Source: an uncultured archaeon
GTDB lineage: Archaea > Asgardarchaeota > Lokiarchaeia > Sigyniarchaeales > SOKP01
Assembly (NCBI GenBank): GCA_964632315.1
Contig: CAZWEM010000037.1
Coordinates: forward strand, 1-47,730
DNA: 47,730 nucleotides
Reading direction: 5' to 3'
The notes under the pieces were generated by a model that saw only the letters and a list, made by a program, of their open reading frames with translations, had not been told where the DNA came from and did no database searches. The position numbers and the translations under genes are program-made. Positions 1-19,023 of this stretch are shown in pieces (position 1 is the first letter of the stretch; the number at the start of each line of letters is the position of its first letter).

Positions 1-461
1 TGGTTCCCCCACACAATGATTTTTGTTGCATTTCCTTCGATAATTGTCCCTTTCAGGAAACGGAACTATGTAGACATTTATCCCAACAGTTAGAAACAGT
101 AGTATCGTTGATTGAAGTTTATGATTCCACCACTTGGTATCATAAGTTATTTCAAAAGGGGGAGTTAATTGATAAATTTTGCAATAATCCTATAGAATTT
201 GAAGATGAGAAAAAGGCAAGTGAATTCAAGGGTAATGTTGAAGTCTTATCTAAACTTTTTAATGTAGATGAACTTGAAATTCAAGAATATCTTTTTCAAT
301 TTACGCCTCATAACAGAAATTATAATTTTACAAGAAAAATCAACATCTCAGATAAGTATGCTCTTGGAAATGGATGGTTTTTCGTTGATTTTTGGAGGAA
401 ATTAGGGATAGAATATCCTAGAACAAGTCCTCAGCTTATTTTACTCCATGAAATTAAATAG
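1..461 (+). CDS. hypothetical protein, 5'-partial
   Basis: The frame of ORF 108..461 stays open back to position 3 (VPPHNDFCCISFDNCPFQETELCRHLSQQLETVVSL-IEVYDS...), so the true start probably lies upstream of the window. Confidence 0.65.
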   Translation, partial: VPPHNDFCCISFDNCPFQETELCRHLSQQLETVVSLIEVYDSTTWYHKLFQKGELIDKFCNNPIEFEDEKKASEFKGNVEVLSKLFNVDELEIQEYLFQFTPHNRNYNFTRKINISDKYALGNGWFFVDFWRKLGIEYPRTSPQLILLHEIK

Positions 462-750
462 GATGAATATCTGTAGATTATTCAAATAAATCTAATATCT
501 TAGATAATGTTTCACTAATTTCAATCAATAAATCAATCTGATCGCTGAGATTTTTAGAATTCTCGCGATATTTACTAGTTATAACAGACAATTTAGATGG
601 ATCCATTTCCCTATCAAGTAATTTTTGATACTCCATTTTTTTAGCTCAGATTAGATTTCAAATTAAAAAAAGATGGAAATCTATTTCAAGTTTCAAAAAT
701 TGTAATTCAAATAGATTATTAGATTAATATTAGAGTAAATTAAACCCATC

Positions 751-1155
751 ATGCTCGATATAATTTTAATTCAACATCCAAAAACTGGATTAAAGCTTTT
801 AGAATACAGGCAAGCGCATACAAAAATAACTTCAATACATGCAGATATATTTAGCGGGTTTATGTCCGCCATACAGAACATCTCAACGGAATTAGATATT
901 GGAACCTTAATTTTATTATCCACTGAAGGCTCAAAAGGCCATAATTGTATAATAGTTCCAAAACCACCAATAAATGTGATACTTTTGGTGGATCAAGAAG
1001 ACCCCGTCGATCTTTGGCGTGAACAAGGGCATCTTATAGCTGATAAATTTCTCAAGACATTTGGGAATCATTTTAATCCTAATGATGTTTCGAGATTTGA
1101 ATCATTTGCTTCGACTATTAAAGATTTATGTTCTACTCATGAATTTTGCGAATAA
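751..1155 (+). CDS. small longin/roadblock-like (profilin-type fold) protein of the Asgard type
   Basis: 134 aa; hydrophobic N-terminal strand plus TGL, and DIFSGFMSAIQNISTEL, the xxSGFxSAI pattern common in Asgard longin-like proteins. Confidence 0.55.
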   Translation: MLDIILIQHPKTGLKLLEYRQAHTKITSIHADIFSGFMSAIQNISTELDIGTLILLSTEGSKGHNCIIVPKPPINVILLVDQEDPVDLWREQGHLIADKFLKTFGNHFNPNDVSRFESFASTIKDLCSTHEFCE

Positions 1156-1169
1156 ATCTAATAACTCCC

Positions 1170-1190
1170 TAAAAAAATATTTAAATTAAT
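1170..1190 (+). promoter_or_regulatory. putative BRE/TATA promoter for the leuS leader transcript
   Basis: An A-run is followed by ATTTAAAT (1179-1186), about 25 nt upstream of the uORF1 ATG at 1208, which would give a near-leaderless transcript. The AT-rich background limits certainty. Confidence 0.4.
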
Positions 1191-1207
1191 AATCCTATTA
1201 AATAGTA

Positions 1208-1291
1208 ATGATCAATAATAACGCTACAAAATTAATTTTAAAGGAATCCATTGCTTTAGATGATTTGCTAGCTTTGTTATTATTGTTATGA
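1208..1291 (+). CDS. putative Leu-rich leader peptide uORF1 of leuS, MINNNATKLILKESIALDDLLALLLLL (27 aa)
   Basis: Translated by hand: 10 Leu in 27 aa; 7 of the last 8 codons are Leu, with 5 consecutive before TGA; located directly upstream of leucyl-tRNA synthetase. Confidence 0.7.
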   Translation: MINNNATKLILKESIALDDLLALLLLL

Positions 1292-1406
1292 AAGGGACAA
1301 ATCCGCTAATACTCTTTCTTTATAATCTGCTTGGATTTGTCCGTTTGGCATGAATGATTATTTAAAAGAGATTTTCGCGTATTTTTCCCTCAAAAATAAC
1401 GGAATC
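1213..1406 (+). promoter_or_regulatory. structured leuS leader with three tandem hairpins
   Basis: CAATAATAAC 1213-1222 pairs with GTTATTATTG 1276-1285 (plus GCTA/TAGC and CAAA/TTTG inside). GGACAAATCC 1295-1304 pairs with GGATTTGTCC 1333-1342. TATTTTT 1380-1386 pairs with AAAAATA 1392-1398, with flanking CG/CG and GATT/AATC. Confidence 0.7.
1288..1353 (+). CDS. putative uORF2, MKGTNPLILFLYNLLGFVRLA (21 aa)
   Basis: ATGA overlap with the uORF1 stop; 6 Leu encoded CTA, CTC, CTT, CTG, CTT, TTG. Confidence 0.5.
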   Translation: MKGTNPLILFLYNLLGFVRLA

Positions 1407-1427
1407 AGGAAAAAAAATTATGTATAA
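1350..1427 (+). CDS. putative uORF3, MNDYLKEIFAYFSLKNNGIRKKNYV (25 aa)
   Basis: ATGA overlap with the uORF2 stop; its TAA (1425-1427) lies just inside leuS (ATGTATAA overlap). Confidence 0.4.
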   Translation: MNDYLKEIFAYFSLKNNGIRKKNYV

Positions 1428-4314
1428 TGCTCATGAAATTGAAAATAAATGGCAGGGGAGATGGCAAAAGTCTAAGATATTTGAGGCTAATCCTAAACCA
1501 GGAACTCAAAAGAAATTCATAACAATCCCATATCCGTACGCTAGTGGTCCACAACACATTGGACATGGAAGGAGTTATGCAAATGGCGATATTTTTGCCC
1601 GATATTATCGAGCAAAAGGATATAACGTCTTACTTCCAATGGCTTTTCACATCACAGGAACTCCCGTATTAGCGATTTCCTCAGCAATCGAACGGCGTGA
1701 TAAGAAGATCATAAAGCGGATGCATCAATATGTCTCTCTTCACACATCAAGCAAGCAAAAAGTGAAAGAAATTGTAGATAGTTTTGTAGATCCTTGGAAT
1801 ATAGTTTATTATTTTTCTGATGCAATTAGAGAAGATTTTATTGCACTCGGAATGAGTATCGATTGGAGGAGACAATTTACCACGGGAGACCCTGTTTATA
1901 ACAAGTTTATAGAATGGCAATTCCAAAAATTAATGGAAAAAGGGTATATAGAAAAGGGAGCATATCCGATCTTGTACTGCCCACGGGATAAGAACGCAGT
2001 AGGGGAGGACGATATAGCGAGCGGAGATGAATTGGATTTAAACATTAATGAGTTTACCTGCATCAAATATCCGTATGAAGATGGATATTTAGTTGCGGCA
2101 ACCCTGAGACCTGAAACTATTTTTGGAGTTACAAATATTTGGATCAATCCTACAGGCACTTATGTTTACGTGAAGATAAAAGGAGAAAAATGGATAATTT
2201 CCGAAGAAGCCATTGCATTGTTTAGGAACCAAGGAAAAAATATCGAAATTTTAGAAAAGTTTCCAGGAAGTATATTAATTGGAAAACAGACGAGTTCTAT
2301 CAGGGGGAGTAGGAAAATGCCAATTCTTCCAGGCGATTTTGTTGATACTTCGACAGCTACTGGCGTAGTCTATTCGGTTCCAGCTCATGCTCCATATGAT
2401 TATATTGCTTTAATTGAATTACAAAAAAATGATAAAATCATTCAACAATATTCTCTTGATAAGGATAAAATCGAGTCAATAAAACCCATAAAAATAATTG
2501 AATTAAAAAATACTAAGGATTTTCCAGCTAAAGAATTCTGCGAAAAATATGGAGTAGAAAGTCAACTAGACAAAGAAAAATTAGATAATGCGACGGCTGA
2601 ATTGTATAAAAGTGAGTTTTACAATGGGATTTTGAATGAGAAATGTGGTAAGTATAGCAATAAACCTGTTAATGAAGCTGTACAAGAAGTAATTCAAGAT
2701 TTAACAGAAGAAGGCAGTGCTGATAGACTATATATCCCCGTGACTCGTGATTTAAGGTGCAGATGCGGTGAAAAAATTATAGTTACCATTTTAGAAGATC
2801 AATGGTTTCTGAATTTTAACGCAGCAGATTGGAAGAAGAAGGCGTTTGATTGCTTAGAGCAAATGCAAATTGTACCGAACAAGTATCGTCAAAACTTCGT
2901 GAATGTTTTTCATTGGTTGGAAAAACGACCCTGCGCAAGGAAAAGAGGATTAGGTACTAAGCTACCCTTTGATAAAAATTGGATAATAGAATCATTGAGT
3001 GACTCAACGATTTACATGAGTTTCTATACGATCATCCATATTATAAATGAGAAATCCATTCAACCAGAACAGCTAATTCCAGAATTTTTTGATTATGTTT
3101 TCCTGAGTATAGGAAAAATTGATGTGGTCTCGGATAAAACAGGTATAAAGAAGGATATTTTAGAAGAGATGCATTCTGAATTTATCTATTGGTATCCTGT
3201 TGATCATAGACACACTGCAATCATGCACATTTCGAACCACTTGAGCTTTTTTATCTTTCACCATGCCGCTATCTTTCAAAAAAAAGATTGGCCAAGATTG
3301 ATAACTCTCATAGAACCAGTTATAGTAGAAGGCCAGAAAATGGGAAAATCAAAAGGTAATCTCATCTCCTTAGCAGAGTTAAGAAAAAACTATTCTATCG
3401 ACCTTTTTAGATTTTATATATCTCATGGAGCAGACTTGGGGGTAAGTGTTGATTGGAGAGAATCAAAGATCAAATCTATTTCAAATCATATTGAGCGCTT
3501 TTATAGCTTTATTACAGATAATCTAAATCAAACTAATATGAAAGACCAAAAGGTCGAATTGGATAAGGAATATCCAAAAGCGATACTGTCTAAAATCTTA
3601 AGATTCTTCATTACCTCTGAAAATGCTTTAAAAGAGTATAACTTGAGGAAATACATCCAAATTGCTTTTTATGAAGTTTTCAACATGCTCCAAGAATTTA
3701 AAAAGTATTCTGATAATAAAGATTTTCAAAGTCTATTTGATATTATTGTATTTGATTGGCTAAAGCTACTCTCATTGGTTATCCCCCACGTTTGTGAAGA
3801 ATTATGGGAAAAAGCCCATAAGGGTAAACCTGGATTCATATCTAATGAAATCTGGGAGCCATTTGACACCAACCTCATAAATGATGATCTTGAATCTAAT
3901 TTTGATTACATTTCAGAGCTTATCGCCGATATCCTCAATATAAAAAAAGTTGTAACCGTACAAGATAACGACGCAATATTTATTTATACTGCTCCTAACT
4001 GGAAGTATGAAGTCCAAGAGAAAATAGTTTCAAATGAAGGAGAATTTAATAAAATTCTTTCAGAATTAAAGCAAGATCAAGAAATAATGAAGAAAAAAGG
4101 ACTCATGCCTTTTATCAAAATGCAAATAAAGAATAGAATATGGGAGAAGAATGGATTTAGTGATAAAGAAGATGAACTTTTATTGAAGTATAAAGAATTC
4201 ATCAAAAAGCGCATTAATCATCCAATAATTATCAATTCAGAACACGATCCTACCAATAAAAAGTCAAAAGCAATTCCCAATAAACCAGCTATATACATTG
4301 GAGAAAAAACATGA
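1420..4314 (+). CDS. leuS: leucyl-tRNA synthetase, archaeal type
   Basis: PYPYASGPQHIGH (HIGH motif), ATLRPET editing-domain motif, TGVVYSVPAHAPYD, KMGKS (KMSKS variant), C-terminal KAIPNKPAIYI. Confidence 0.97.
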   Translation: MYNAHEIENKWQGRWQKSKIFEANPKPGTQKKFITIPYPYASGPQHIGHGRSYANGDIFARYYRAKGYNVLLPMAFHITGTPVLAISSAIERRDKKIIKRMHQYVSLHTSSKQKVKEIVDSFVDPWNIVYYFSDAIREDFIALGMSIDWRRQFTTGDPVYNKFIEWQFQKLMEKGYIEKGAYPILYCPRDKNAVGEDDIASGDELDLNINEFTCIKYPYEDGYLVAATLRPETIFGVTNIWINPTGTYVYVKIKGEKWIISEEAIALFRNQGKNIEILEKFPGSILIGKQTSSIRGSRKMPILPGDFVDTSTATGVVYSVPAHAPYDYIALIELQKNDKIIQQYSLDKDKIESIKPIKIIELKNTKDFPAKEFCEKYGVESQLDKEKLDNATAELYKSEFYNGILNEKCGKYSNKPVNEAVQEVIQDLTEEGSADRLYIPVTRDLRCRCGEKIIVTILEDQWFLNFNAADWKKKAFDCLEQMQIVPNKYRQNFVNVFHWLEKRPCARKRGLGTKLPFDKNWIIESLSDSTIYMSFYTIIHIINEKSIQPEQLIPEFFDYVFLSIGKIDVVSDKTGIKKDILEEMHSEFIYWYPVDHRHTAIMHISNHLSFFIFHHAAIFQKKDWPRLITLIEPVIVEGQKMGKSKGNLISLAELRKNYSIDLFRFYISHGADLGVSVDWRESKIKSISNHIERFYSFITDNLNQTNMKDQKVELDKEYPKAILSKILRFFITSENALKEYNLRKYIQIAFYEVFNMLQEFKKYSDNKDFQSLFDIIVFDWLKLLSLVIPHVCEELWEKAHKGKPGFISNEIWEPFDTNLINDDLESNFDYISELIADILNIKKVVTVQDNDAIFIYTAPNWKYEVQEKIVSNEGEFNKILSELKQDQEIMKKKGLMPFIKMQIKNRIWEKNGFSDKEDELLLKYKEFIKKRINHPIIINSEHDPTNKKSKAIPNKPAIYIGEKT

Positions 4315-4442
4315 ATTTATTGTTTTTTAAATAATAACAAAGATACTTTAGAGCTTAAGAAACCAAATTAAACTCTAAAGCTTTAAAATTAGTCATAGCA
4401 TAATATATATCAAAAAAACATTTTTAATTTTTAACGTATATC

Positions 4443-5609
4443 ATGAGAAATTTTAACTATTTCCATCCAACCAGAATCTTATTCGGTAAAGATAGAGTTA
4501 ATGAAGTAGGAAAAATAGTTGCTAGGAATGGCAAAAGATGTTTATTAGTGACTGTCGAACCTTTTCCAGCAATGAAAGAATTATTCGAAAATGTTAAAGG
4601 TTTATGTGAAAAAGCAGGGATAGAAACTATTCATTATGATGGGGCTGTTCCTGAACCTAATAATGATTGTGTGAATAAAGGATCCAAAATTGCACGAGAA
4701 AATAATGTAGATGTAGTACTTGGAGTGGGAGGAGGTTCAACCATGGATACTGCGAAAGCAATTAGTGTAGGTGCAACACATGAAGGAGATATTTGGGATT
4801 ATAGATTAGGACAAAAAAGAGTAGGTAAAGATATTCTTCCAGTCATAGCTGTTCCAACCACTGGTGGTACTGGAGCAGAAGGTACCAACATGGCAGTGAT
4901 TAAAAATGCAAGAGATAAAACTAAGTCTGCAATAGCAAGTTGGGATCTTACACCTCGAGTAGCAATTGTCGATCCTGTTCTTACATTAACAGTTCCACCA
5001 AAAATTACTGCTTCTACTGGATTTGATGCATTTACTCACTCTTTTGAAACATTTATAAATATTCACTCCTCGAATTTTATTGATCTCTATGCTTTGGATG
5101 CGTTAAAGAAAATAATAAAATATTTACCCCTAGCTGTTGAAGATGGATCTAACCTTGAAGCACGAGAGGCTCTTTCATTTGCTGCAATGCTCGGTGGATT
5201 ATGTATTTCAAATATTGGTACAACGTTACCTCATGGAATGGCTATGGCTCTTGGAGGTCATGTCTCTGGAATAGCTCATGGAGAAACTCTTGCAATATTA
5301 TATCCTGAAGTCAATCGTTGGACATGGACAACCGCTATTGAGAAATTTGCAGAAGTTGGGCGATTATTTAACCAAAACTTATACGAGGTTTCTGACAACA
5401 CTGCAGCTGAAAAATGTTGTGATGAGATTGAGTCATTCATTAAAACAATTGGACTATGGAATGATTTATCTTCAAAGAATGTAATTAAAGATGATTTCGA
5501 GGCAATAACAGAAGATGCATTAAATCTGCGTAATTATGCTCTTCATCCAAAAATAGCAAATCATGATGATCTCATCGATCTGTTTGAAAAAAGTCATAAA
5601 AAGCAATAA
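4443..5609 (+). CDS. iron-containing alcohol dehydrogenase
   Basis: GGGSTMDTAK, PTTGGTGAE, metal ligands in DAFTH, PHG and AHG. Confidence 0.93.
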   Translation: MRNFNYFHPTRILFGKDRVNEVGKIVARNGKRCLLVTVEPFPAMKELFENVKGLCEKAGIETIHYDGAVPEPNNDCVNKGSKIARENNVDVVLGVGGGSTMDTAKAISVGATHEGDIWDYRLGQKRVGKDILPVIAVPTTGGTGAEGTNMAVIKNARDKTKSAIASWDLTPRVAIVDPVLTLTVPPKITASTGFDAFTHSFETFINIHSSNFIDLYALDALKKIIKYLPLAVEDGSNLEAREALSFAAMLGGLCISNIGTTLPHGMAMALGGHVSGIAHGETLAILYPEVNRWTWTTAIEKFAEVGRLFNQNLYEVSDNTAAEKCCDEIESFIKTIGLWNDLSSKNVIKDDFEAITEDALNLRNYALHPKIANHDDLIDLFEKSHKKQ

Positions 5610-5631
5610 TATGTGATTCTTCATTTAAAAT

Positions 5632-6543
5632 TTACTTGTTTTCAAGGCCATATACTTGTTTTGGACATAAATATTCTGGAAATTTATCAATTAACTTAAG
5701 TCGAAGTTCATAGCAAAAATGGCATTCATCAACATACGAATCCTCATGTTCAAGCCCATATTGATTAGCTAATTCTGCTGGGCCACCTTTTATTAATGAA
5801 GAGCAAATTGGATGATTATCCCCATTAAAATCAGCTATCAGTTTCGATAAAGGAGTTTTGAATGCATTTCCTATACTTAAACCTTGACAAACTTGAACAT
5901 TACCGAACGGGTCCACATGAACTCTCCCCAAATTTATTAAATCCTCATATGGACATGAATCTAATTCGTTCCAAGGTCTTGTGGGTAAACCTTCAATTAA
6001 CTTTTCGACTGCTCTTCCTCTAAACATCGCTCCACCACCAATCACGGGTTTTCCTTTTTCATGATCTTTATCAATACCTTCCTGAACTGTTGGAGTTTCA
6101 ATTGTAATCGAAGAAACAGGTACCCCCAAGTTTTCTGCCGCATTACGAGCATTTTTTGCAAGGTTATTAAATTTATCATCGAAATGGAATAAATCGTCGC
6201 TAACTTCCATGCTTTCTATCCCGATTTCAAGAATTGGTTTTAACCAGACTTCAGCGTCTTTAACATTAGTGGCCCAGTATGAATTGGTAACTAAGCCAAT
6301 CTTAAACTCCTTTTTCTTTGCATATCTCATCCCTTCAAGCATTATAGGATAAAATAGAAATGCCTCTCCCCCTTCAAAATAAATGCTTTCAATTGTTCCA
6401 ATTTCAGCGGCTTCATCCAATATTTGCTTTATATGATCTAAAGAAAATGTTCCTTGAGAATTAGGACTAGAATATAAAAAGCAGTGGTCGCAAGTATAAT
6501 TACACGAGTAAGTCAATAAAAAATGAATACCTTTAAGATTCAT
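5632..6543 (-). CDS. radical SAM protein
   Basis: CNYTCDHC motif, EGGE, extra C-terminal cysteines (CPY, QVC, PIC, ECHFC). Confidence 0.9.
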   Translation of the reverse strand: MNLKGIHFLLTYSCNYTCDHCFLYSSPNSQGTFSLDHIKQILDEAAEIGTIESIYFEGGEAFLFYPIMLEGMRYAKKKEFKIGLVTNSYWATNVKDAEVWLKPILEIGIESMEVSDDLFHFDDKFNNLAKNARNAAENLGVPVSSITIETPTVQEGIDKDHEKGKPVIGGGAMFRGRAVEKLIEGLPTRPWNELDSCPYEDLINLGRVHVDPFGNVQVCQGLSIGNAFKTPLSKLIADFNGDNHPICSSLIKGGPAELANQYGLEHEDSYVDECHFCYELRLKLIDKFPEYLCPKQVYGLENK

Positions 6544-17082: not shown

Positions 17083-19023
17083 TCAATTATCTTCTAATTC
17101 CTCTAATTCCTGTATGAAAGGAGCAGTAATCGCAAGCCACTTGGTTTTTTCATCTTTAATTATTTTACTTTCTTCAATTGCTTGCTTTCCCCTAATCAAG
17201 GCTTCCATTGCTATGGATTTATGTCCCAAATTTTTATGACAAATCCCATATTTTATATAAGTTTGGAATAAATACCATTCTTTTTTGCCCAGATTTATCA
17301 CTTTCTCAAAAGCATTCACTGCCATCTCATACTCGCCAAATGTCATCAAAATTTCCCCATAAGTATCATGTAAGGAAGGATTTTTCTCATCTTCATTGAT
17401 TAATTCCCTGATTACACTAATAGCTTCTTCTTTTCGATCTAAATATGAAAGCCAATATGCTTTATACTTGAGAAGATCTTGGTTTTCTGGGTCTTCGTCC
17501 AGCAAACTTTCAATTATTGCAAGACCACTTTCAATTTCTCTATTCTCCTTTAGAACGTATGCTTTTTTAATTAATAAATCTCTCTTTTCCACAGGAAATA
17601 ACTTCATCATTTGATCATACATGTTATTTAATTCACTAAATCTATTGAAATACAATAATAAATTTTCTTTAGAACGATACAATTCAATATTTTTTGGCTC
17701 TAATTTTATCTGTTCCTCGATTTGAACGATTTTATCTTCAAGATTTATATCTGCTTCAAGTTCTACTTCTAATACTTTAAGATTTTTAACTTCTCTCCAA
17801 ATTAATCCTTTAAGTTTATCTGAAGGCCCTCGATATTCTTTCTTACTTTCAAACTTATACGCTAAATGTTGAATATATGATGGTAATAATTTTTCTAAGG
17901 ACCTACGCAGGCCTTCATCAAAATTTATCCCACAAACATTATCTAATATTGATCTACTGATTGTATCTAGATTAAAGGAAAAATTTTGTTCCCTCTCATA
18001 GAGCCTGTTTAGATAAGTAAATTTAGCGATTTGTTCTTCTACAGTAGCTCTCAATATTTTTTCCAACTTATCATTTTCTTGAAAGAAATAACAAAATCCT
18101 TCATCTTCTAATTTAAAGAATTTTGTAGGATACCATGATTGTTCACTGAAACATTTATCCACAATTTGTAAAATAGAGAAATCTAATATAGCAGGTTCAA
18201 TATCATACTTTTTTGCAAACTCCTCTCTTGAGGTATGATTAGGAAATTGTTTTGGATGATTAAGTGAAAGGAATAATAGGATCTTATAAAAATCTATTTC
18301 ATCCTTTAGGATGGAATTTACCTTCCCATATGGTAATTTCAATATATTGTTTAAAAAACGAAACCGCAGCTCATCATCCTCGATATTATACCCATCAAAG
18401 AATTTAATTGTCTTTTCCGTTAAATCTTGAATACGTTCACTTTCAGAATCCAATATAGATTGGCGATCTAATTCATACTTTTTAAGCATTCTTGAGTATT
18501 CAGATTTTCCTAAGCGTGTAATGCTATAACGCTTTTTATCTTCATCTTTATGTATAAACTCATTTTCCGGAATCATTAAATCATTTAGAGCTTTTGATAA
18601 TGAAGATTGGTTTATGGAAACTGGTTCTTTCAGAAAATCACTCCATTGCAGAAAATTATTATTATATGCCATCCAGAGGATCCAATCTTCATAATTACGT
18701 CCCGATCGCAACATTTGGTAAGGGGGATAATTAACCTTTCTCTTCCTGCTTTTTAATTGCGATAATTCGTAGAAACGATCCCTTCCTTCTGAAGTAATAC
18801 GATATTCATTATATTCACTATGATCCACTTGTTCTTTTTCTGTAAGGTCTTTAAGATAAAGTGATAAAGTTGAGGGCTTGATCACTTTCTTAAGATCTGC
18901 CCAACTACAACTTTCATTGTTGTTAAGCATCCAGAGTATTATTAATTCAAAGTCAGGTTTTCCAAAAATTGGTTTTGATATTTCCTTAGGAGGATAATTT
19001 ATCGGCGAATCCATGAGTATCAT
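17083..19023 (-). CDS. tandem winged-helix-like N-terminus plus C-terminal TPR protein
   Basis: Two N-terminal repeats (NYPP...ILWM.NN....W.D...LS..L.DL...Y.IT..G) and TPR-like helices (HDTYGEILMTFGEYEMAVNAFEKVI). Confidence 0.75.
   Translation of the reverse strand: MILMDSPINYPPKEISKPIFGKPDFELIILWMLNNNESCSWADLKKVIKPSTLSLYLKDLTEKEQVDHSEYNEYRITSEGRDRFYELSQLKSRKRKVNYPPYQMLRSGRNYEDWILWMAYNNNFLQWSDFLKEPVSINQSSLSKALNDLMIPENEFIHKDEDKKRYSITRLGKSEYSRMLKKYELDRQSILDSESERIQDLTEKTIKFFDGYNIEDDELRFRFLNNILKLPYGKVNSILKDEIDFYKILLFLSLNHPKQFPNHTSREEFAKKYDIEPAILDFSILQIVDKCFSEQSWYPTKFFKLEDEGFCYFFQENDKLEKILRATVEEQIAKFTYLNRLYEREQNFSFNLDTISRSILDNVCGINFDEGLRRSLEKLLPSYIQHLAYKFESKKEYRGPSDKLKGLIWREVKNLKVLEVELEADINLEDKIVQIEEQIKLEPKNIELYRSKENLLLYFNRFSELNNMYDQMMKLFPVEKRDLLIKKAYVLKENREIESGLAIIESLLDEDPENQDLLKYKAYWLSYLDRKEEAISVIRELINEDEKNPSLHDTYGEILMTFGEYEMAVNAFEKVINLGKKEWYLFQTYIKYGICHKNLGHKSIAMEALIRGKQAIEESKIIKDEKTKWLAITAPFIQELEELEDN

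Follow-up and report, generated by a model that had tools for sequence, protein, structure and literature searches.

Organization of the leuS locus

The window, meaning the whole stretch of 47,730 nucleotides that was analyzed, carries close to its beginning an archaeal-type leucyl-tRNA synthetase gene (leuS). The initial annotation had ascribed the DNA to a probable Asgard archaeon, which is borne out by its close relatives, whose MAGs are deposited as Promethearchaeota. The locus is contained in 20 listed sequencing runs, which are DNA or unlabelled and stem mostly from salt-marsh and marsh metagenomes. The preceding gene (751-1155, plus strand, 134 aa) ends at 1155 and its product has no Pfam or NCBIfam match, and a tRNA scan of the window yielded no tRNA genes. 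Between the two genes lies an intergenic gap of 264 nt, which holds a leader with a short upstream ORF (uORF). The components of this leader and its gene are as follows.

1171-1187, plus strand: leader promoter, an A-run (BRE-like) and then the TATA box TTTAAATT at 1180-1187; conserved in alignment A1
1208-1291, plus strand: leader ORF (uORF), 27 sense codons and TGA, by direct reading
1265-1288, plus strand: putative regulatory Leu codons, TTG CTA (GCT) TTG TTA TTA TTG TTA
1420-4314, plus strand: leuS, archaeal-type leucyl-tRNA synthetase of 964 aa, the gene proposed as controlled

The 27-codon ORF described initially is confirmed with its ATG at 1208, its TGA at 1289-1291 and the peptide MINNNATKLILKESIALDDLLALLLLL, and direct reading returns the same codon tail, TTG CTA GCT TTG TTA TTA TTG TTA TGA, in which seven of the eight final sense codons encode Leu. 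The claimed spacing of 128 nt to leuS holds as well (uORF stop at 1291, leuS ATG at 1420), as does the TATA-like box, the center of which is located ~24.5 nt 5′ of the uORF ATG. In 17 leaders of relatives, this distance amounts to 21.5-30.5 nt. Such a distance would place the transcript start at or within a few nucleotides of the ATG; hence, the uORF is probably leaderless or nearly so.

The product of leuS matches the archaeal LeuRS equivalog TIGR00395 (931 bits) and PRK12300, and its N terminus, MYN..EIE.KW, is kept in orthologues. Archaeal-type leuS was not found in 6 of 24 genomes of the home genus and thus looks accessory. A second, bacterial-type LeuRS (TIGR00396, 856 bits) is encoded elsewhere in this genome, G000, at G000:C41:23710-26700 on the minus strand (locus L120:1211-4201). 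This gene contains an in-frame TAA after ~143 codons; one TAA inside the N-terminal LeuRS match is also present in the search table for G023, G006, and G009. The interruption may reflect a pseudogene, a split gene, or recoding. No leader was seen 5′ of it. The leader of leuS suggests that the archaeal-type LeuRS, accessory in the genus beside a bacterial-type LeuRS, may be an inducible enzyme.

One alternative to a functional leader is an ORF that arose by chance in AT-rich DNA, its TTA repeats being of microsatellite type. The genome has a GC content of 33% and TTA is its commonest Leu codon (44% of Leu codons), both of which favor such an origin. For a census of mini-ORFs, the long ORFs of the 4.45-Mb assembly were masked and ATG ORFs of 10-60 codons were collected from both strands of 622 kb of intergenic DNA. 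Among the resulting 5886 mini-ORFs, the uORF alone has seven Leu in its last eight residues, so that comparable Leu tails, which the initial annotation had considered as a possible chance feature of intergenic DNA, are not common in this genome. The runner-up is a single ORF with six Leu of eight, located 5′ of leuA. The two most Leu-tailed mini-ORFs of the genome, the leaders of leuS and leuA, hence precede the genes with the most direct link to leucine. Chance is refuted by this uniqueness and by the conservation of the uORF in three genera, where the nucleotides have diverged and Leu is written with several synonymous codons, and we give it virtually no weight.

Conservation of the leader among relatives

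LeuRS was searched in 40 relatives and in a species-representative collection, giving orthologous loci at 55-73% protein identity. A homologous Leu-run uORF is found 5′ of every orthologous leuS with enough upstream sequence, in line with the leader proposed initially. Altogether, 33 distinct leuS leaders from three genera were obtained, 23 of them in a first set and 10 more from genus g22. The uORFs of the 23 leaders comprise 26-32 codons, with LeuRS identity reaching down to about 55%, and share the peptide consensus M-I-S-N-N-T-A ... L-K ... L-x-D-L-L-A-V-L-L-L-L. The uORF stop is located 112-159 nt 5′ of leuS in all leaders with a placeable gene start. No uORF element is present at leuS loci with LeuRS below 50% identity.

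A covariance model, R1, was built on the RNA module downstream of the uORF. With this model, the element is detected as a single leuS-linked copy in 84 out of 135 family genomes, covering 7 of 13 genera, and no match was obtained in 16 genomes belonging to three further families of the order. Genomes of the home genus that lack a leuS-type R1 match coincide with those for which the search yielded no archaeal-type leuS.

Coding constraint on the uORF

All 23 distinct leaders keep the frame of the uORF open; for the other two frames of the plus strand, the counts are 0 and 3. Length differences between leaders are whole codons. This constancy bears on a rival explanation, according to which the element is a structured non-coding leader RNA, that is, a site for LeuRS, another protein, or tRNA, with the Leu codons and the open frame as by-products. 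Against such an RNA, every leader retains the ATG, the reading frame, and a stop in this frame at the base of the hairpin, with the other plus frames closed.

Over the final 10 codons of these 23 leaders, Leu accounts for 66% as compared with 10% genome-wide, and not one of these 230 tail codons encodes Ile, Phe, or Met. Leu is written with the synonymous variants TTG, CTA, CTT, CTC, and CTG. The one-step neighbors of TTA that occur in the tails are TTG (21 times), CTA (5), TCA (4), and GTA (3); ATA, TTC, and TTT never occur. At the two Leu codons 5′ of Ala-Val, variation is seen at the third base alone. Polar replacements by Ser and Gln do occur in the tails, and their tolerance, together with the absence of Ile, Phe, and Met, fits selection for Leu codons and not for a hydrophobic tail.

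The latter point counts against a second rival explanation, an independent small gene for a hydrophobic-tailed peptide that has its own promoter and a U-tract terminator. Herein, the TATA-like box at 1358-1367 would drive leuS, and both genes would be linked for historical reasons or through promoter interference. The TATA box of the uORF itself, the U-tracts after its stop, and a conserved TTTAATTG element 50-95 nt 5′ of leuS agree with this arrangement. Against it, the hydrophobic stretch spans just 9-10 residues, conservation is lacking in the middle of the peptide, and the element strictly co-occurs with archaeal-type leuS. Codon-position entropy is nearly flat with values of 0.92, 0.87, and 1.10. 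In leader peptides, drift outside the regulatory codons is usual.

Architecture of the leader RNA

The uORF and the sequence following it are predicted to fold into two stems and a pseudoknot.

1214-1224, plus strand: stem 1, 5′ arm, codons 3-6, AAUAAUAACGC; pairs with 1271-1281
1271-1281, plus strand: stem 1, 3′ arm, within the Leu run, GCUUUGUUAUU
1291-1304, plus strand: stem 2, 5′ arm, beginning at the last base of the stop codon, with the core GGACAAAUCC at 1295-1304; pairs with 1333-1346
1305-1332, plus strand: stem 2 loop of 28 nt with a conserved U-rich tract, family consensus AUCUUUUUCUUUUAAAUUUUU, and several invariant columns
1312-1318, plus strand: pseudoknot 5′ strand, CUCUUUC, in the stem 2 loop
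1333-1346, plus strand: stem 2, 3′ arm, with the core GGAUUUGUCC at 1333-1342
1358-1367, plus strand: TATA-like element TTTAA(T/A)T, conserved, 5′ of the purine box
1364-1370, plus strand: purine box, which is the pseudoknot 3′ strand, AAAAGAG here and GAAAGAG in most relatives
1382-1386, plus strand: second T5 tract, in a U-rich segment that shows weak conservation 3′ of the purine box (A2 consensus)

Stem 1 connects the beginning of the uORF with its Leu run. It is present in the MFE fold of nearly every species; over the 23 leaders, pairing holds in 83% of cells, with changes on both sides in 5 of 11 pairs, and a slid partner gives 37-60% paired. As the 3′ arm lies inside the Leu run, a ribosome on the Leu codons must melt stem 1. 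The Leu codons thereby form one strand of a conserved A/U-rich helix, so that part of their conservation is structural, and on the aligned leaders both coding and structural constraints appear visible in the uORF.

The non-coding RNA explanation draws its support from this overlap. The whole uORF lies within conserved helices, stem 1 pairs AAUAAU with AUUAUU, and a paired change in L039 alters both amino acids while the pair is kept. First-position U-to-C changes, by which TTA or TTG becomes CTA, CTG, or CTT, point the other way, since they keep Leu but would weaken A-U pairs. Rfam also offers no match for such an RNA: a cmscan of 1-6000 with E up to 10 gave weak, unrelated matches only, mostly of snoRNA type, and neither Leu_leader (RF00512) nor a T-box. 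The lone match touching the leader is snR75 on the minus strand, with 17 bits against a cut-off of 40. We regard a purely non-coding RNA as unlikely.

Stem 2 starts 0-5 nt from the uORF stop codon in all leaders. Its compensatory pairs number 6 of 11 in alignment A1, 6 of 12 in A3, and 8 of 12 in a set of 45 sequences. The purine box follows ~20-25 nt beyond the hairpin and pairs with the U-rich loop. The 7-bp core of this pseudoknot is paired to 94% in 22 leaders, and a 10-bp helix to 88% in the 45 sequences, with 5 pairs changed on both sides. One pseudoknot pair is split into A-U 11, G-C 11, and G-U 7 among the 45 sequences, and a change from A-U to C-G is found in L037. Combined, the double-changed pairs amount to 13 compared with 7.1 ± 1.4 in shuffles, of which 0 of 500 reach 13.

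The covariation of the stem 2 arms and the purine box means that the selected transcripts reach past the U-tract to at least 1370. This is difficult to reconcile with a small gene that ends at the U-tract, which we consider very unlikely. The TATA-like element at 1358-1367 could nevertheless be a second promoter that gives leuS its own transcript.

The conserved U-tract sits inside the stem 2 loop, not after a hairpin, and a bacterial promoter and terminator scan of 700-1700 found no terminator of hairpin and U-run type 5′ of leuS. The region just 5′ of leuS is not alignable among leaders. In the MFE fold of G000, the U-rich segment of the second T5 tract can pair with the A-rich start region of leuS; this pairing is not conserved.

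Two further arrangements were considered and rejected as family-wide features. The MFE folds of many species propose a long-range alternative helix, in which the stem 2 5′ arm and the U-tract pair with the purine box and AGGUGG. Family-wide, the extension is 63.5% paired with little covariation. No clear mutually exclusive alternative helix is conserved; the conserved fold is the hairpin plus the pseudoknot. A relay of three coupled uORFs was likewise rejected as a conserved feature: its uORF2 (1288-1353) is confined to the 8 of 23 leaders in which the stop reads ATGA, and its ORF over the leuS ATG occurs in 7 of 23 at variable position.

Paralogous copies of the leader scaffold

The scaffold of the leuS leader also occurs in front of other genes. 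The paralogue in this genome is located at G000:C62:18309-18489 on the plus strand (locus L189:1425-1605); its uORF at 18309-18395 encodes MVSNNTATRIMVRKLLSIIIIIVVVIII with an Ile/Val tail. Copies of this type with Ile-rich tails are present in G000 as well as in G002, G004, G008, G015, and G059, two genera in all, and keep the N terminus, stem 2, and the purine box. The gene after them encodes an FrhB/FdhB-like iron-sulfur protein with a TrmB-like C terminus. Copies with Val-rich tails, such as LLVVVLLL and VLGVVVLVVVL, are found in four other genera. Four Val-tailed loci were followed downstream (L249, L250, L251, and L252 from genera g21, g19, and g17), and an ORF of ~45 aa comes next in these, which ends with ..IAW and has a strong GGAGG Shine-Dalgarno site.

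Tails are thus group-specific: Leu only before leuS, Ile-rich, or Val-rich. Such tails fit sensors that may have been re-coded for other amino acids, and the restriction of Leu-only tails to leuS counts against a non-coding RNA. In favor of the latter, the paralogue on C62 reads a similar A/U-rich tract as AUU (Ile) and not UUA (Leu). The genes behind the Ile- and Val-tailed copies are not ilv, ileS, or valS and have no known tie to Ile or Val, which counts against the sensor reading; hydrophobic tails in front of unrelated genes also agree with an independent peptide gene.

Cognate leaders before other genes

Further cognate cases were sought by scanning all intergenic mini-ORFs for codon enrichment and annotating the genes located behind them. 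The question whether other genes of this genome carry cognate uORFs, raised in the initial annotation for synthetases, is answered positively with conserved cases at an extra ileS (Ile), leuA (Leu), trpB2 (Trp), and hisIE (His).

The leuA leader (G000:C2:154319-154429, plus strand; locus L116:120-230) has 36 codons ending with LNLFLLLL. It ends 129 nt 5′ of leuA, which encodes 2-isopropylmalate synthase, and a hairpin whose loop is U-rich comes after it. Conservation of this leader covers the genus and extends to other families of the order, with tails such as FLLLLLNLLLLLL and MLALLLLL, always ~125 nt 5′ of the aligned gene start.

The trpB2 leader (G000:C20:40871-40924, plus strand; locus L121:172-225) consists of 17 codons ending with GWQWQWCL, 143 nt upstream of a gene whose product matches NF009057 with 650 bits. 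Its WxWxW motif is kept in most genomes of the genus; other families have weaker Trp-containing uORFs farther upstream. UGGUUU in the 5′ UTR can pair with AAACCA after the stop.

The hisIE leader (G000:C55:12157-12303, plus strand; locus L123:58-204) ends with YLHHCQHHY, 60 nt upstream of its gene. It is conserved in four genomes with the same gene form, and the tails of three relatives include HHHLHYK and HLHHHQHHK. Two hairpins follow its stop, the second of which is succeeded by UUUU and a GGGGGA Shine-Dalgarno site.

The extra IleRS gene (TIGR00392, 821 bits) is found only in G000, G006, and G008. In this genome, its leader lies at G000:C30:50484-50558 on the minus strand, before ileS at C30:47478-50333. 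The uORF is conserved as ..IIS.III. and ends 126-150 nt 5′ of the gene. A pairing is possible herein between GGAUGUGG 5′ of the AUG and CCACAUCC 3′ of the uORF.

A uORF is also located before pheS (G000:C27:25582-25680, plus strand; locus L226:514-612). It has 32 codons with a Phe cluster F-K-F-F, begins 21 nt after TATATAAA, and lies ~200 nt 5′ of pheS; a 12-bp hairpin spans its stop codon. No convincing cognate uORF was found 5′ of two other class I synthetase genes (C42 and C47).

The cognate leaders are unrelated in sequence and alike in design, with cognate codons near the stop. Those read in detail have a hairpin with, or followed by, U-tracts soon after the stop. That unrelated leaders of leuA, trpB2, hisIE, and ileS show the same cognate logic speaks once more against Leu codons as by-products of an RNA fold.

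Proposed mechanism of leucine sensing

The comparison directly supports the ORF, its conservation, selection for Leu codons, three covarying helices, the position of these helices at the stop codon, and the parallel cognate leaders. It is on this basis likely that the leader is a cis-acting, ribosome-mediated leucine sensor for leuS. Control of leuS by ribosome stalling, as suggested initially, is supported insofar as every comparative test run came out in its favor, the response to leucine itself being deduced from sequence. We infer translation of the uORF, stalling, and an output step together with its direction, which would proceed as follows.

Transcription would begin at or next to the AUG of the uORF, and a ribosome would translate the 27-codon leader as RNA polymerase proceeds. 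With ample Leu-tRNA(Leu), the ribosome would pass the Leu codons and reach the stop codon. The 5′ arm of stem 2 would be covered by a ribosome that has reached the stop or the final 3-4 codons, and left free by one on earlier Leu codons. As the stop codon abuts this arm, the ribosome footprint would prevent stem 2 and leave the U-rich tract single-stranded. With scarce Leu-tRNA(Leu), the ribosome would stall within the Leu run, 5 or more codons short of the stop; stem 2 would fold, and its U-rich loop would then form the pseudoknot with the purine box.

For the output, termination at the exposed U-tract and read-through when it is buried is the version we prefer, albeit with somewhat less than even confidence. 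The exposed U-tract would act as a termination signal under ample Leu, either intrinsically or via aCPSF1/FttA, so that transcripts end before leuS; under scarce Leu, the U-tract would be buried in the pseudoknot and the polymerase would read into leuS. This termination model yields the expected regulatory sign and explains the position of the U-tract in the loop. The main alternative is a translational output, in which alternative pairings would free the start region of leuS. Against the sensor reading, plain loss of coupling on stalling predicts more termination and, thus, the opposite regulatory sign.

U-tracts are the archaeal termination signal, and aCPSF1, including the Lokiarchaeota orthologue, binds U-tract RNA via its KH domains (PMC8716108). 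Ribosome-polymerase coupling in archaea and its surveillance by FttA have been discussed (PMC11616081). Coupling together with U-tract termination by aCPSF1 makes the mechanism feasible in archaea.

More tentatively, and with rather less confidence than for the termination output, the family may run a ribosome-driven regulon, in which leaders for Leu, Ile, Trp, and His, and possibly Phe and Val, precede aminoacyl-tRNA synthetase and biosynthesis genes. The output would be specific to archaea, with a stop-adjacent hairpin plus pseudoknot that hides or exposes a U-tract read by aCPSF1/FttA. The leuS scaffold would herein be modular, with duplicates in which Ile or Val has replaced Leu in the tail and which bring new genes under amino-acid control.

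Comparison with known leader-peptide systems

Leader-peptide attenuation is a textbook bacterial mechanism that needs coupled transcription and translation as well as hairpin terminators. Like its bacterial counterparts, the leuS leader has a short ORF 5′ of the gene on the same strand, is enriched in cognate codons, conserves these codons while the peptide drifts, and contains RNA structures that would depend on ribosome position (stem 1 and stem 2). As it has no hairpin and U-run terminator, it falls outside the structural definition of the classical bacterial attenuator of trpL/leuL/pheM type. Functionally, it would nonetheless belong with the bacterial leader-peptide attenuators, of which pheM-pheST, the predicted Streptomyces leuS attenuators, the actinobacterial LEU element, and the mycobacterial poly-Cys ORFs come nearest.

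No published case of leader-peptide attenuation in archaea, Asgard archaea included, was found in the literature searched. The setting comprises several genes in the closest prokaryotic relatives of eukaryotes and an RNA module unlike bacterial attenuators. If confirmed, the mechanism would imply functional ribosome-polymerase coupling in Asgard archaea and provide a natural handle on the regulation of archaeal U-tract/aCPSF1 termination. It would also supply a defined element, the uORF plus a module of ~100 nt, that is usable in reporter systems.

Classical attenuators have been predicted 5′ of leuS in Streptomyces avermitilis and S. coelicolor (PMC1262725). With these and with Escherichia coli pheM-pheST, the archaeal leader shares a cognate-codon leader ORF before an aminoacyl-tRNA synthetase gene and ribosome position as the proposed sensor. 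The bacterial systems use a terminator hairpin and U-run with a competing antiterminator, whereas in the archaeal leuS leader the U-tract is located in the loop of the stop-codon hairpin and tied into a pseudoknot. The latter further differs by its apparently leaderless start behind a TATA box and by the different termination of archaea.

Enterobacterial leuL (RF00512) likewise has a Leu-codon run near the end of a leader peptide of ~28 codons that senses Leu-tRNA. The two systems are set apart by the gene under control, the domain of life, and the RNA module, and the Rfam scan gave no match in sequence or structure.

If the leuS leader starts and acts as proposed, the leaderless poly-Cys ORFs of mycobacteria resemble it in being cognate-run ORFs at the 5′ end of the transcript and in forming a multi-locus regulon that acts by ribosome pausing (bioRxiv 10.1101/834739). 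There, the stalled ribosome blocks structures that sequester the RBS, which amounts to translational control (bioRxiv 10.1101/834739), whereas no conserved pairing with the start region was found for the archaeal leuS leader.

The actinobacterial LEU element 5′ of leuA (PMC1262725) also combines a Leu-run uORF with a conserved pseudoknot and has no obvious terminator. The two are not homologous. The Leu run of the LEU element was proposed to pair with leuA's Shine-Dalgarno box (PMC1262725), whereas that of the archaeal leuS leader pairs with the 5′ codons of its own uORF, and the pseudoknot is built from the U-rich loop and the purine box.
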